The notes beneath the pieces were generated by a model. That model was given only the letters and a program-made list of their open reading frames with translations. It had not been told where the DNA came from and made no database searches. From the NCBI GenBank assembly GCA_022796855.1, contig JAAWJM010000006.1:4781-68780 (forward strand): 64,000 nucleotides of DNA, given 5' to 3'. This DNA is from Clostridia bacterium (GTDB lineage: Bacteria > Bacillota > Clostridia > TANB77 > CAG-508). Made by a program: the position numbers and the translations under genes. Below are positions 46,194-54,551 of this stretch, in pieces. The stretch's first letter is position 1. Every line of letters starts with the position of its first letter.

Positions 46194-46352
46194 TTATCCT
46201 ACATGTTGTTCTTTCTCATTACTATATTTTAATTTCGTCGCCATCCCTCCTCTAATATGTCTTTCTGCTTTATTTTCATCTAATATTTTTCTAACCTCCA
46301 ACGCTAGACATGGGTTTATCTTTTGTAATCTTTCACTAACATCTTTGTGTAC
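46194..46352 (-). CDS. spoIIID: spoIIID 3' segment (C-terminal half), separated from the 5' segment by the element
   Basis: Minus-strand translation from the core gives (V)HKDVSERLQKINPCLALEVRKILDENKAERHIRGGMATKLKYSNEKEQHVG, stop at 46194..46196. This parallels B. subtilis SpoIIID HKDLTERLPEINPDLANEVKEIL..RHLRGGEATKLKY, recalled from memory. Confidence 0.85.
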   Translation of the reverse strand, partial: VHKDVSERLQKINPCLALEVRKILDENKAERHIRGGMATKLKYSNEKEQHVG

Positions 46353-47988
46353 TGATGTTACTTTCCAGAGCGGTTGGATTTTTGTTATCTAGAGTTGTTC
46401 TTTGGAGTGGGGGGCGATTACTAATCGCCCCTACATTAGTTTCGATTTCATTAAAATTAGTTATAACAGTTGGGGTACTGCCTATTTCATTTAATAATTT
46501 TAATCTTACTTCTACATTTGAGTCACTATCTACTTCGATTACATCTATAATTGTTTTTAGCATTGCATTTGTAATTGTTTTGTTATTTAAAATATCATCT
46601 ACTGTGCTAATTGTTTTAGATAATTCCTTTTCTAGTCCATCTTTTTCTTTTATTTCTGATGTAATTAGTTTTAATTCTCGCTCTAATCTTGCAATATCTT
46701 CATTTAATGGGTTTGTATATTTCTTTAATTCTTGTATATTGATTACTTCGTTTTGGAACATTTCCATATATTTTTGCTTTTTACTAGTTACCTTTTCTAT
46801 TTCTTTCAAAAGGCTTTCTTCACTTCGTTCATTGTTTTCCCTTAATTTAGTAATCTTTTCAAATTCTTTTTCTACGGCTTTCATAAAGTTCTTTTTGTTA
46901 GAAATAATGCTTTTTAGATATTCTTTAATAGCATTTAAAAGCTCTTCTTCATCTATTACTGTTGTATTAGGGCAATGATTTACACCCATTGAGTTTCTTC
47001 CACTACATACCCATCTTATATATTCTTTGCCATCTTCTGTGTATTTTCTTCTTACTCTTCTAAATGAATAACCACAATGTTTGCAATATATAAGTGTGCT
47101 AAATACATATTCTGTTTTTTCTCTTTTGTTATTCAACTTAAATTCATTTGACCTCTGTAGTAAAATATCTTGTGCTCTATTAAATAATTCATCTGATATA
47201 ATTCTCATTTCTGGTTTTTCTACTACTATCCATTCTTCTTCTGGTAAATCTTTTCTTGTTCCTGTTATAAAGTCTGTTACTTCTGATTTTTTATTGGTTA
47301 CTCGCCCTGTATAGATTGGATTTTTAAGCATTCTTACGATAGAAGTTTGTACCCATTTTGATTTTGTTTTTTTGGTTCTTATTCCTCTATCATTTAAATC
47401 CCATGCAATTTTTGTTGTTCCAATTCCTTTATATACATAGCTTTCAAATATCTCTTTTACAATTTTTGCCTCTTCTTCGTTTATTTTTAAAGTATATCTT
47501 TCATCTGGTATTTTGTCATATCCAAAAACAATGTTAGGAACTCTTCCTTTTTTAGCAGTAATGTCTTTTCCGAATTTAACCCTTTTAGACATATTAGCAC
47601 TTTCTTGTTGTGCCATTGCTCCTAAAATAGTCAATATAAATTCAGAGCCACCTTCCATTATTTCGCCATTGTTTAAGAAATCAACTTCGATTCCATAAGA
47701 TTTTAGTTCTCTTATACTTTGTAGTAAATCTACTGTATTTCTTGCAAAACGGCTAACATCTTTTACTACTACTTTATCGAATTTCTTTGTTTTGGCATCT
47801 TGCATCATTTGTTGGAACTGCTTTCTGTGTTTTATTTGCTTTCCTGATATTCCTTCATCTGCATATAGCTTGTACAATTCATAATTGTTCTTTTTCGTAA
47901 ATTCATTGAAAAATTCTATTTGTTTTTCAAATGATTCTACTTGTGATTCCTTTTCAGTTGATACTCTTGCATATGCTGCAATTTTCAT
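46336..47988 (-). CDS. Large serine recombinase
   Basis: Has a resolvase-type N-terminus, MKIAAYARVSTEKESQ..YADEGISGK, and a recombinase/zinc-ribbon region, CKHCGYSF..WVCSG..CPN. The last codons (..ESNISTQRC) read across the left att core into spoIIID sequence. Confidence 0.9.
   Translation of the reverse strand: MKIAAYARVSTEKESQVESFEKQIEFFNEFTKKNNYELYKLYADEGISGKQIKHRKQFQQMMQDAKTKKFDKVVVKDVSRFARNTVDLLQSIRELKSYGIEVDFLNNGEIMEGGSEFILTILGAMAQQESANMSKRVKFGKDITAKKGRVPNIVFGYDKIPDERYTLKINEEEAKIVKEIFESYVYKGIGTTKIAWDLNDRGIRTKKTKSKWVQTSIVRMLKNPIYTGRVTNKKSEVTDFITGTRKDLPEEEWIVVEKPEMRIISDELFNRAQDILLQRSNEFKLNNKREKTEYVFSTLIYCKHCGYSFRRVRRKYTEDGKEYIRWVCSGRNSMGVNHCPNTTVIDEEELLNAIKEYLKSIISNKKNFMKAVEKEFEKITKLRENNERSEESLLKEIEKVTSKKQKYMEMFQNEVINIQELKKYTNPLNEDIARLERELKLITSEIKEKDGLEKELSKTISTVDDILNNKTITNAMLKTIIDVIEVDSDSNVEVRLKLLNEIGSTPTVITNFNEIETNVGAISNRPPLQRTTLDNKNPTALESNISTQRC
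46337..46352. repeat. Left copy of the 16-bp direct repeat (att core) TAACATCTTTGTGTAC
   Basis: Identical 16-mer at 54425..54440. The flanking sequences differ on both sides. Confidence 0.85.
46409..46435 (-). repeat. REP-like GC-rich hairpin inside the recombinase 3' coding tail
   Basis: Minus strand reads TGTAGGGGCGATTAGTAATCGCCCCCC, with the perfect stem GGGGCGATT/AATCGCCCC. It is translated as ..NVGAISNRPPL. Confidence 0.55.
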
Positions 47989-48110
47989 AACATCACTACT
48001 TTCTTTTTATTGTTATCTGTAACTTTTGTTTCGTTCTGTTACATTTTAGCATATTAATTGCAAAAAAGCAATAAAAACATAAAAAACTACTCCTATATTT
48101 AGGAATAGTT

Positions 48111-49001
48111 TTAATATTTTATTTTATTCGGTTTTAATTCATACTCTAAAGAATATTCATCTAACTCCATCTGATATATTGGTATATTTAATGTATATGC
48201 AATGTCAAATAGTCTCTTTTTGTTCATTTCATGGCATTTAGCGCCAATATAAATTGCTGATGGAATTGCATCAGTGTACTCTCCTACACTAGGCAAATTT
48301 ATTACTAACCTTATTTCCTTTTCATATGACCAACTTTTATGTTTTAATAAGCTATAATACATTGAAACCCAAATAATTAAAAGATTATCAACTTTTATTT
48401 CTTTTATATTTTTCTTTTTAGCTTCTTCTTTTAACTGTAAAATTTCTTCTACTATATTTTCCATTATATTTGAAATATCAACTCTTTTATCTGTATATTG
48501 TACTGGAAAACAGCATGACTTCAATAAATGATTTTTCTTATTATTGATATCATACTCAATGCAATATCCTTGATGATTATTGGAATAATGAGCCCACATT
48601 GGCATACTATTTACTCCATTCCTTGTAAAACAAGCAATCTTTGATAATTTTGAAAAGTCATCAATTACTTTTCCATTACATTTTTTTAAAATATCGAACT
48701 TCATTAAATTTTCTGGTTTGTAAAAAAATGCTTTTGTATCAAATGGATCATTAAATGAACTGGGTTTAGATAAATAAACTTTTTGTTTCACTAAGGTATC
48801 TAATTTAGCTTCATTTAATTGGTCATCGTTTGTTAAAGAATAATATTTATATATCTTATCTGGTATATGTATTCTAGTAACTTTATATATTGCATCAGTT
48901 ATAATTGGATTACTTGGATCTTCTTTTATAAGTTCTATAGCTTTAAAGTAATCCATTGGCATTTCTTCTCTATATTTTTCTACATCAAATCCTTCAGACA
49001 T
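48111..49001 (-). CDS. DUF2971-family protein (element cargo)
   Basis: Contains YLSKPSSFNDPFD, MWAHYSNNHQGYCIEYD and WSYEKEIRLV, which match my recollection of DUF2971 hallmarks. Confidence 0.6.
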   Translation of the reverse strand: MSEGFDVEKYREEMPMDYFKAIELIKEDPSNPIITDAIYKVTRIHIPDKIYKYYSLTNDDQLNEAKLDTLVKQKVYLSKPSSFNDPFDTKAFFYKPENLMKFDILKKCNGKVIDDFSKLSKIACFTRNGVNSMPMWAHYSNNHQGYCIEYDINNKKNHLLKSCCFPVQYTDKRVDISNIMENIVEEILQLKEEAKKKNIKEIKVDNLLIIWVSMYYSLLKHKSWSYEKEIRLVINLPSVGEYTDAIPSAIYIGAKCHEMNKKRLFDIAYTLNIPIYQMELDEYSLEYELKPNKIKY

Positions 49002-49092
49002 TAATACTCCTTACACTTATATTTTATTATATATTTATTTTTCAATATTTTTTAAATCATTTTCAGTGCCACTTTGAGTGTCATTGGCACTG

Positions 49093-53432: not shown

Positions 53433-53647
53433 ACAAAGTTTATCTGTGTGGCAGGGAAAATAAATTTTTTCCCCACACCCCTTTGCCTAAAAATTTGTGA
53501 CTCACAATTTTTTAGGTTTGAAATAAATTTAATTTCTCAATTTATTTCAAAAAAAGAGCAAGAAAAAATTGCACTTGCAATTGTATTTCTTACTCTCCTT
53601 GAAACTCATTCGGTTTCAAACTTCCGTTTAAGCCTGTATATACAGTA

Positions 53648-54112
53648 TTATCTATGGTTATTTTTATTAGATTCATCGGTGCGAAAATAACTAAGCAATA
53701 ATTGCTTTTTATTTTCGTTTCCTTTCATTATAATATTAGGACTAACTTGCCAAAGTCCATTTTGTATTTTCTTTAAGAACTGTTGCTTTTGTAATTTTTT
53801 CATAACTTTAGCAATAGTAGTTTCAGATGTATGTGTATTCTTTTGAATTGTTTTATAAGTTCCCACAAACATATTTGTACTAGGTTGTGTATTTTCTAAT
53901 ATATATATCAAAATATCTACCTGTTTACTTTCCACAATTCCTAATACTGGTAAAAAATCTCCTAAATATAATTTCCAAAAATTCTTTTGCCCATATACTT
54001 TTTTAGTAATCTGATCTACTTCAATAATCTCTCCTGTTTCTTTATCTATCAACTCTTTTCTTCTTGTACCAATTAATGTTTCTGTTTTTTCTATATATTC
54101 AACTCCCATCAT
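53648..54112 (-). CDS. repL: RepL-family plasmid replication protein
   Basis: The size (154 aa) and the sequence ..KKVYGQKNFWKLYL..LGIVESKQVDILIYILENT..NMFVGTYKTIQKNT..SETTIAKVMKKLQ match my recollection of firmicute RepL. Confidence 0.65.
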   Translation of the reverse strand: MMGVEYIEKTETLIGTRRKELIDKETGEIIEVDQITKKVYGQKNFWKLYLGDFLPVLGIVESKQVDILIYILENTQPSTNMFVGTYKTIQKNTHTSETTIAKVMKKLQKQQFLKKIQNGLWQVSPNIIMKGNENKKQLLLSYFRTDESNKNNHR

Positions 54113-54424
54113 TCAAACCTCCTCAAATTTAAAATAAAATACTACATTATAGTGAAGTAAACACTAAAGTGTAGTAAAGTGTGTAAAATGTTTATAAATA
54201 CTAATATCTCAACCAAAAAAGACTTTTTTATAAAATAAAACTCTTTTCTAATATAAAACTGCAAAAAAATAAGTCCTAAAATTTTACTTTTAAGACTTAC
54301 ATTTTTATTATTTATTTAATTACCAATCCAAATTTCACAATAGGATTTCTTGTACTTAGGAAAACTCCTTTTATTTCAATACTTTCTGGAATAACTTTTC
54401 CTATCTTTTTACCGTTCTTTAGTG

Positions 54425-54440
54425 TAACATCTTTGTGTAC
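54425..54440. repeat. Right copy of the 16-bp direct repeat (att core) TAACATCTTTGTGTAC
   Basis: Identical to 46337..46352. Confidence 0.85.
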
Positions 54441-54551
54441 AGTACTTTTACTAATTCCAAACTTCTTTGCTGCTCCTCTTACGGTATCTCCACTATCTAT
54501 TATATACTGTGCAAGATTAACGGCTCGTTCTTCTATGTAGATTTTTCCCAA
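54425..54551 (-). CDS. spoIIID: spoIIID 5' segment (N-terminal HTH half)
   Basis: TTG start at 54551 with an AAGGGGG RBS. It gives MGKIYIEERAVNLAQYIIDSGDTVRGAAKKFGISKSTVHKDV, which parallels B. subtilis MHDYIKERTIKIGKYIVETKKTVRVIAKEFGVSKSTVHKDL (from memory). The rest of track ORF 54312..54551 is element sequence. Confidence 0.85.

Follow-up and report, generated by a model that had tools for sequence, protein, structure and literature searches.

The locus described here raises the question of what divides the sporulation gene spoIIID of a Clostridia bacterium (GTDB lineage CAG-508), and how the gene might be made whole again. In the mother cell, SpoIIID switches gene expression from the sigma-E phase to the sigma-K phase, and mother-cell expression of spoIIID is established for other species. 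The DNA analysed, hereafter the window, is a stretch of 64,000 nucleotides from contig JAAWJM010000006.1 (assembly GCA_022796855.1, positions 4,781 to 68,780 of the forward strand), and all coordinates are positions in this window unless a related locus is named. On the minus strand of the window spoIIID is broken at 54425-54440 and 46337-46352 by an insert of 8,088 bp, and there is very little doubt that the insert is a mobile element which was integrated into the gene by a large serine recombinase (LSR).

A preliminary description of this DNA had stated that spoIIID is cut in two by an element of 8.1 kb with a serine recombinase at its edge, that the same 16-bp repeat lies at both junctions and that deletion restores an uninterrupted 89-codon spoIIID. 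All three statements were borne out by the sequence, the protein domains and the junctions. The 16-mer TAACATCTTTGTGTAC occurred exactly twice in the window, once at each junction, against a chance expectation of ∼0.08. Translation of 54551..54426 on the minus strand yielded MGKIYIEERAVNLAQYIIDSGDTVRGAAKKFGISKSTVHKDV, the first 42 residues of a SpoIIID-like helix-turn-helix (HTH) protein, and the remaining 47 residues (SERLQ...EQHVG, followed by a stop) were encoded by 46336..46194 on the same strand. Removal in silico of one repeat copy together with the intervening DNA generated an open reading frame (ORF) of 89 codons, and the joined 89-aa protein scored 124.8 bits against the TIGR02844 SpoIIID equivalog model, for which the cutoff is 111.5. 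No second spoIIID was found in the 64-kb window, which was the whole scope of this search.

Related genomes were compared for an empty site, as the preliminary description had proposed, and the site was found to be precise, including in conspecific genomes more than 99% identical to the window. Three genomes (L108, L110 and L115) were 99.1-99.8% identical over ∼10 kb on each flank and joined 54425/7 directly to 46352; on these alignments they are conspecific genomes without precisely this element. More distant relatives with the gene order spoIIID-yabG-veg-sipL-yunB-mreB had an intact gene and the same bacterial attachment site, attB. The exact restored 89-aa SpoIIID was present in 96 index blocks of the public assemblies and the split 79-aa fragment in 31, and by this count the element is present in some strains of the species and absent in others. 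An assembly artefact or chimeric contig was rejected as the origin of the split, because the same junctions recurred in many independent assemblies, as did the unusual downstream context, and the conspecific empty site was precise.

The insert contains eight genes, encoding the LSR, a DUF2971 protein, a CptIN toxin, a small acidic protein here designated F1, a DUF6076 protein, an Xre-type HTH regulator, a MobV relaxase and RepL (Table 1). The resolvase domain of the LSR (PF00239, 6.6e-35) spans residues 3-149 and includes an AYARVST motif with the Ser10 nucleophile, the C-terminal domains comprise PF07508 (7.6e-25) and the zinc ribbon PF13408 (6.1e-13), and the protein matched the integrase family phrog_95 at 1e-120. 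The stop codon of the LSR straddles the left repeat and the gene overlaps attR; its 3′ end runs through attR, and integration swaps its last ∼5 residues. The MobV relaxase was ∼30% identical to the MobV relaxases carried on 3-8-kb mobilizable Firmicute plasmids. No phage structural, packaging or lysis family was detected among the element proteins in Pfam or PHROGs, no type IV secretion (conjugation-pore) gene was present among the eight genes, and no nucleotide match to the element was found by megablast in the plasmid and phage collections. Judged by the combination of LSR, MobV and RepL, together with the lack of phage genes and of any phage or plasmid match, the insert is therefore a plasmid-like integrative mobilizable element and not the remnant of a defective prophage. 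Identity with a prophage or with a known plasmid was rejected on the megablast result and the lack of phage genes. The label skin-like, used in the preliminary description, thus applies in the sense of an intervening element in a sporulation gene and does not extend to the defective-prophage type, given RepL, MobV, the toxin module and no phage genes. The nearest LSR in the phage collection, at 46% identity, belongs to MT838016.1; this entry was rejected as a circular relative, as it is a bacterial fragment in which the gene is flanked by PPK2 and YqfD.

Upstream of the CptIN toxin gene (49617..49686) are two repeats of 22 nt with a spacing of 48 nt, which may represent an antitoxin RNA; Tandem Repeats Finder reported no array at this position. 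The toxin and the repeats are likely to constitute an addiction module. Between F1 and the divergent DUF6076 gene is a non-coding stretch of ∼465 nt (50053..50518), which was partly conserved across elements and somewhat G+C-richer, and which is a possible location for an oriT, an origin of replication or an RNA. Rfam gave no match to this stretch or anywhere else in the element.

The distribution of the element was assessed by scanning one genome per GTDB species for the LSR. Relatives were found in 144 genomes, and the best 80 of the 144, with LSRs 85-99% identical, were followed; the locus sets comprised 81 loci from tblastn, 78 loci reaching past the LSR and 26 complete elements with the 5′ half of spoIIID in reach. 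The carriers are metagenome-assembled genomes (MAGs) of uncultured low-GC Clostridia from mouse, human, ruminant, rabbit and chicken guts, and include two closed chromosomes of 1.6-1.7 Mb. Complete carrier chromosomes are available as OZ007016.1 and OZ006978.1, samples with the window variant include ERR12869658 and SRR11195276, and contig NODE_4 of assembly ERZ18534153, at 403x coverage, suggests that a cultured or enriched carrier may exist. The 3′ half of spoIIID directly followed the LSR in 77 of the 78 loci extending past it, the exception being L018, in which a second, non-identical element follows in tandem. The N-terminal half was located 4.7 to >11.5 kb upstream, and the elements at the 26 loci measured 4.7 to 11.5 kb. 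ORF clustering identified the LSR (26/26) and F1 (23/26) as the sole families shared by the complete elements; the relaxase, CptIN, DUF6076 and RepL-like genes were variable between elements, CptIN being present in 14 of the 26 and DUF6076 in 12, and a TnpV-domain gene was found in variants L118-L120. F1 was detected by tblastn at 66 of the 81 loci, and most of the loci that missed it had no upstream DNA. It was encoded on the LSR strand in every locus except L027, at a distance of 156-5090 bp upstream of the LSR. The F1 family amounts to 965 protein clusters and gave no Pfam or PHROG family match.

Variation at the junctions among these loci was used to locate the crossover. The bases of attR which lie 3′ of the CA (core position 5) showed synonymous variation only, the residues H-K-D-V being kept in the 78 loci, and are therefore host DNA. 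The corresponding bases of attL varied non-synonymously (HTEV, HTDV) and are therefore element DNA, while core position 3 in attL varied like the host Val codon. The CA itself (positions 4-5) was the same in attL and attR in 26 of 26 pairs, and positions 3 and 6 differed in some pairs. The reconstructed attP, which is ∼54 bp in length and has a short identity with attB, contains the symmetric blocks GATGTWAC and GAACGGTA exactly around the CA, and 17.7 of 30 positions of the dyad were complementary when it was centred on the CA, compared with 5-8 when the centre was shifted by 1-3 bases. On account of the variation in attL and attR and the CA-centred symmetry of attP, the crossover is assigned to the CA with which codon His39 begins; this codon belongs to the recognition helix of the HTH. 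The preliminary description had located the repeat correctly and had drawn the junction at the end of the repeat (codon 42/43); from these alignments the point of recombination falls at codon 38/39, inside the repeat.

The crossover model makes predictions about the circular form. The LSR frame runs through attP, and the predicted attP-form C-terminus, ...NT[KQP]ER, was conserved, the integrated forms having variable ends. Exact look-up of the predicted attP-form LSRs in public data recovered two of 14 variants, and the attP junction was seen in nine other assemblies of related variants. Three of these assemblies (L118-L120), and L125, contained head-to-tail tandems of two identical copies within spoIIID with the predicted attP between them, and L121-L124 were short contigs that crossed the same attP junction and ended just after it. 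At L125 the bases immediately before the CA were GTC in attL and GTA at the internal junction, which matches the prediction of the model. The copies in the L018 tandem have diverged from each other and this tandem is therefore real; in the other contigs real tandems, circles and assembler loops would have the same appearance. A DNA-pattern scan for attP returned 0 matches in viral_contigs and 0 in metagenome_contigs, negatives that carry no information because the control pattern for integrated copies also returned 0 and the collection is without this family.

Comparison of element and host sequences indicated extensive exchange. The elements in the window and in L001 were 98.6% identical over 7 kb, with an LSR dS of 0.025, whereas the dS of the respective spoIIID genes was 1.48 and the host flanks were unalignable. 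The reverse was found in the near-conspecific L030, with host flanks 94.6% identical to the window and a spoIIID dS of 0.047 against an LSR dS of 0.55; the L030 element is 4.8 kb in length and has a different cargo from that of the window. SipL of the hosts was 40-78% identical among loci and the LSRs were at least 85% identical, an identical DUF2971 cargo protein was found in at least three host contexts, and the correlation between LSR dS and host dS was weak (rho 0.17). Because the element and host phylogenies disagree, the element is best described on these comparisons as horizontally transferred among species and not as a fixed host feature. The LSR had a dN/dS ratio of 0.064, F1 one of 0.20 and the split spoIIID one of 0.11, and stop codons were found in 0 of 78 C-terminal and 0 of 28 N-terminal halves of spoIIID.

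Promoter-like sequences were identified upstream of spoIIID, F1 and the LSR (Table 1). The site before spoIIID was conserved in hosts with and without the element, and is presumably recognized by sigma-E, an assignment that we take over from spoIIID of B. subtilis and C. difficile. The motif in front of F1 fits the sigma-E consensus of B. subtilis, kmATATT-N14-CATACAhT. A loose pattern, KMATAWW-N14-MATANNHT, had eight matches in the window compared with 2.4 expected, the site before F1 among them. Of 54 distinct regions upstream of F1, 40 had a match at this same position and 51 retained the −10 box [AC]ATAGTAT. The F1 motif and the host spoIIID promoter have GTnnTAnT-N14-AATAnnAT in common. 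The putative promoter of the LSR, TTG(C/A)WW-17 nt-TGCTAAAAT, is of the sigma-A type with an extended −10 and was found in ∼65 of 73 distinct upstream regions. A small ORF resembling a recombination directionality factor, and sigma-E or sigma-K promoters in front of the recombinase, had been suggested as things to look for; F1 with its sigma-E-like motif is a candidate for the former, and the promoter of the recombinase itself proved to be sigma-A-like instead. The arrangement would match that of SprA/SprB of SPbeta and of CD1231/CD1234 of C. difficile, in which an integrase made constitutively works with a small protein expressed under mother-cell control (PMC4191935, PMC5025042). The leader of the LSR gene also contains a conserved sequence, ATGTAACAGAACGAAA (∼48031..48046, minus strand), in which the attP half-site blocks GATGTAAC and GAACGG are close together; this could be a binding site for autoregulation of the LSR.

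Integration fuses the first 42 residues of SpoIIID in frame to an element-encoded tail of 37 aa, TLKNGKKxGQVIPESIEIKGVFLSTKNPVVKLGLVIK, followed by a stop. This tail was conserved, like the overall length of 79 aa, in >120 protein clusters, insertions of 7-8 codons kept the frame, the stop codon was conserved and the dN/dS ratio was 0.28, all of which speaks for a real coding sequence under selection. In the circular form the tail is not continuous with any conserved ORF upstream; synthesis of the chimera would accordingly require an integrated element and depend on the promoter of host spoIIID. AlphaFold2 predicted the structure of the HTH part and a disordered tail (pLDDT <50). Opposite the tail, the antisense strand likewise has an open frame, in which the third codon positions fall on those of the sense frame, so the codon-position signal is not decisive. 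An antisense gene was considered as the cause of the conservation; no ORF that has a start codon lies antisense to the tail in the window, but the codon signal alone would be compatible with such a gene. The tail contained stop codons in L018 and had diverged in L034. The latter element, the smallest at ∼3.5 kb (7993..11687 of that locus), has a transposase fragment in place of F1; this copy is possibly immobilised and decaying, in which case spoIIID there would stay permanently split.

The conservation of the chimera raises the further prospect of a horizontally spreading developmental switch with a novel form of directionality control, in which the element captures the sigma-E-dependent promoter, the start codon and the first 38 codons of host spoIIID, and the chimera is made in the mother cell alone and for as long as the element stays integrated. 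The chimera, by itself or jointly with F1, would set off excision or adjust the interval from sigma-E activation to SpoIIID. We regard this as quite unlikely; if it were true, carriage of the element would alter when or how often many gut Clostridia sporulate.

These data probably reflect a mechanism that includes excision in the mother cell. The LSR would integrate the circular element by recombination of attP with attB at the CA of codon His39, as the junctions indicate, and the family would be able to enter many low-GC, small-genome species of gut Clostridia because the target lies in the most conserved part of spoIIID. LSR would be made constitutively from its own sigma-A-type promoter and would serve integration after transfer, and F1 would be made from its sigma-E-type promoter once the mother cell is committed. 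As a directionality factor, F1 would then act with the LSR, and the element would leave the chromosome in the terminal mother cell alone, the forespore keeping the integrated copy. The spoIIID gene restored in this way would itself be transcribed by RNA polymerase with sigma-E. Such excision would have to act upstream of SpoIIID, unlike that of the B. subtilis skin element. The CptIN toxin module and the relaxase would serve maintenance and spread. The chances that F1, from its conservation and its promoter-like motif, is the directionality factor are about even.

Several points weigh against this mechanism. We infer excision in the mother cell from promoter-like motifs and from attP junctions in related variants, and neither the attP-form LSR nor the attP junction of the window's own variant was found in the exact look-up. 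The identical tandem copies could be assembler loops, although such loops would still need attP-spanning reads. The promoter assignments are consensus matches in AT-rich DNA. F1 had no detectable similarity to known directionality factors, its predicted structure was of low confidence (mean pLDDT 64), and the L034 element is without F1. The intact halves of spoIIID could reflect recent insertion and not continued selection, and they are weaker evidence for continued function because insertions of a transferred and polymorphic element can be recent. Finally, a second copy of spoIIID beyond the 64-kb window is possible.

Plain insertional inactivation would explain part of the same observations. 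A selfish element might occupy a conserved site in spoIIID with no developmental control over its excision, and carriers would then be defective in sporulation, or would sporulate after rare stochastic excision, the element persisting through transfer, addiction and vegetative growth in the gut. This would agree with the presence and absence of the element within a species, where the intact allele is the commoner, with the clear signs of recent horizontal transfer and with the CptIN addiction module; the attP junctions and tandems could also come from vegetative excision or from plasmid-type replication. Such an element would not, however, be expected to maintain a conserved sigma-E-like promoter at a fixed position before the one accessory gene that is shared, or a separate sigma-A-like promoter for the LSR, as in known pairs of recombinase and directionality factor. 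Moreover, at least 80 species-representative genomes carry the insertion with both gene halves intact, and the hosts have kept their sporulation neighbours, namely ytfJ and spoVT in the window lineage and yabG, sipL and yunB in related hosts. We therefore hold inactivation to be rather unlikely, and favour excision in the mother cell.

Two other explanations appear much less probable. The element might be a domesticated, vertically inherited and immobile remnant like the B. subtilis skin, kept as a timing device for SpoIIID, which would suit the purifying selection on the LSR, the universal order of LSR and spoIIID 3′ half, and the conservation of the chimeric ORF and of the F1 module. The near-identical LSRs in hosts with widely diverged spoIIID, the two different elements in near-conspecific genomes, the conspecific empty sites, the intact relaxase and RepL genes and the identical cargo protein in several host contexts all contradict vertical inheritance; with phylogenetic incongruence and empty sites both against it, this explanation appears already largely refuted, and we give it hardly any weight. 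It is just as improbable, in our judgement, that the chimera of SpoIIID(1-42) and the tail, and not F1, triggers excision when it is made from the sigma-E-dependent promoter of the host, F1 being otherwise employed in plasmid maintenance or regulation. The tail has kept its length and sequence with in-frame indels, it can be expressed only from attL, and its expression would coincide automatically with the firing of the spoIIID promoter. The tail is nevertheless predicted to be disordered, the open antisense frame makes its codon signal indecisive, it is broken by stops in one element and diverged in another, and we know of no directionality factor that is a fusion to a host gene.

Intervening elements excised by serine recombinases have been described in sigK, spsM, spoVFB, spoVR, gerE, yabG and cotJC (PMC4191935, PMC5595907, PMC10747680). 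The preliminary description did not recall spoIIID as a target, but the target is not new, because one skin-like element, 64.7 kb in size, has been listed within spoIIID for Ruminiclostridium cellulolyticum H10 (Galperin et al. 2022, bioRxiv 10.1101/2022.02.25.481979, Table S3). The N-terminal fragment of that gene is annotated as 126 nt, equal to 42 codons, and the break therefore appears to be in the same region of spoIIID. The 511-aa recombinase of H10 adjoins the N-terminal fragment on the opposite strand, whereas the LSR reported here adjoins the C-terminal fragment on the same strand. The H10 element is known from a single genome and one sentence, without analysis of att sites, mobility or distribution; those reported here are plasmid-like, 4.7 to >11.5 kb in size and found in at least 80 species.

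The skin elements of sigK (B. subtilis SpoIVCA; C. difficile CD1231 and CD1234; PMC5025042) similarly have a serine recombinase at the edge, beside the 3′ fragment, split a mother-cell regulator and are excised precisely, and in C. difficile a constitutive recombinase is combined with a small directionality factor under mother-cell control (PMC5025042). They differ in having sigK as the target and in being prophage remnants without a relaxase or RepL, largely immobile, whereas the family described here is exchanged between species. The recombinase gene of the B. subtilis skin needs SpoIIID, which would be impossible for an element in spoIIID. The gin element in gerE of Bacillus cereus ATCC 10987, with GirC and GirX (PMC5595907), is comparable in that it is not a prophage, its target is a small HTH regulator and an LSR acts with a mother-cell directionality factor; horizontal spread of gin was proposed by its authors (PMC5595907). 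However, gin has no relaxase or replication gene, gerE is expressed late, under sigma-K, and the element is confined to few strains of the B. cereus group (PMC5595907). SprA and SprB of SPbeta, which is inserted in spsM (PMC4191935, PMC5499854), also combine a constitutive LSR with a sigma-E/K-type promoter for the directionality factor and with excision in the mother cell. SprA (YokA) was the nearest full-length solved structure to the LSR (E-value 1.6e-14), at low sequence identity. SPbeta differs in being an active phage of 134 kb, in which the directionality factor has an extra stress-inducible promoter.

By gene content the nearest mobile elements would be the Tn4451-type transposons. Tn4451 and Tn4453 are clostridial mobilizable transposons of ∼6 kb with the serine recombinase TnpX, a circular intermediate, the Mob/Pre relaxase TnpZ and TnpV. 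They share with the present family the small size and the combination of LSR and Mob/Pre relaxase; the TnpV domain occurs in some of the variants and TnpX gave a weak match to the LSR. They differ in that targeting by TnpX is relaxed and no host gene is restored, and in having no RepL, no specificity for spoIIID and no F1 family. What is new here is a plasmid-like family of small mobilizable elements, non-viral and present in at least 80 species, with defined attP, attB and crossover, together with a candidate directionality factor preceded by a sigma-E-like promoter, a chimeric ORF and presence or absence within a species.

Table 1. Features of the split spoIIID locus and its insert (window coordinates, except for the related loci in the last row).
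Feature	Position	Strand	Evidence or remark
Host spoIIID 5′ segment, TTG start and codons 1-38 to the crossover	54438..54551	-	Translation; Pfam SpoIIID 9.6e-18; attL bases 5′ of CA vary like host codons
Host spoIIID 3′ segment, rest of codon 39 to codon 89 and stop	46194..46347	-	Translation; attR bases 3′ of CA vary synonymously only, 78 loci
Inserted element, crossover to crossover, 8,088 bp	46348..54435	-	L108/L110/L115 without exactly this stretch
attL core, repeat copy; crossover CA at 54436-54437, minus strand	54425..54440		Junction alignment
attR core, repeat copy; crossover CA at 46348-46349, minus strand	46337..46352		Junction alignment
Chimeric ORF, 79 aa, SpoIIID residues 1-42 in frame with the 37-aa tail	54312..54551 (tail 54312..54425)	-	
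Large serine recombinase (LSR), 550 aa	46336..47988	-	PF00239 (Resolvase), PF07508 (Recombinase), PF13408 (Zn_ribbon_recom)
DUF2971 protein, cargo	48111..49001	-	PF11185 7.3e-16
CptIN-family type III toxin	49093..49563	-	NF047359, 163.4 bits (cutoff 90)
F1, small acidic protein, ∼62 aa (62-67; start codon uncertain)	49849..50037	-	Shared family
DUF6076 protein, sole gene on the opposite strand	50519..51682	+	PF19553 2.2e-16
Xre-type HTH regulator	51736..52104	-	PF01381 2.3e-6
MobV (Mob_Pre) relaxase	52191..53387	-	PF01076 2.3e-44
RepL-type plasmid replication protein	53648..54112	-	PF05732 3.5e-26
Promoter-like site of host spoIIID, putative sigma-E type, GTTCTAAT-N14-AATACAAT	54587..54616	-	Same distance to start codon in at least 30 diverged hosts
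Sigma-E-like motif before F1, TAATATT-N14-AATAGTAT	50052..50080	-	Consensus match
Terminator-like hairpin (48112..48083), then sigma-A-like LSR promoter TTGCTT-17 nt-TGCTAAAAT (48071..48043)	48043..48112	-	
Tandem/attP regions of related loci	L118-L120 11564-11660; L125 11606-11700; L018 11530-11700		

The surroundings of the split gene were also variable. A breakpoint in synteny is located just after spoIIID (∼46181, downstream to ∼36000), and both arrangements recurred in independent assemblies: the window lineage continues past the breakpoint with a 216-aa membrane protein, ytfJ/gerW, recD2 and spoVT, and the sister lineage (L030 and L109, 87-95% identical upstream) with zf_Tbcl, yabG, veg, sipL, yunB and mreB. 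The RecD2-like helicase (42440..44703, minus strand) is broken up into three ORFs (222, 395 and 78 aa). This arrangement recurred in the independent assemblies L087, L088 and L108, and it therefore represents a real pseudogene or frameshifted gene and not a sequencing error. On the other side of the locus, a 5.2-kb block (54702..59886) encoding an MMPL transporter, a 212-aa protein and a 582-aa protein of xxxLxxG heptad repeats was absent from the related L081, in which 59887 is joined to 54701; by this comparison spoIIID is directly preceded by a variable island.

An element in spoIIID must leave its host gene earlier in the sporulation cascade than any characterised intervening element, and can place no reliance on SpoIIID in doing so. 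The LSR, the ∼54-bp attP and the highly conserved attB are defined well enough to be tested as a serine-integrase tool, together with the candidate directionality factor. Annotation that calls the two fragments separately can miss spoIIID, with the result that the sporulation capacity of MAGs is underestimated. The family could be a common and unnoticed modifier of spore formation, and hence of the host-to-host transmission of gut commensals.

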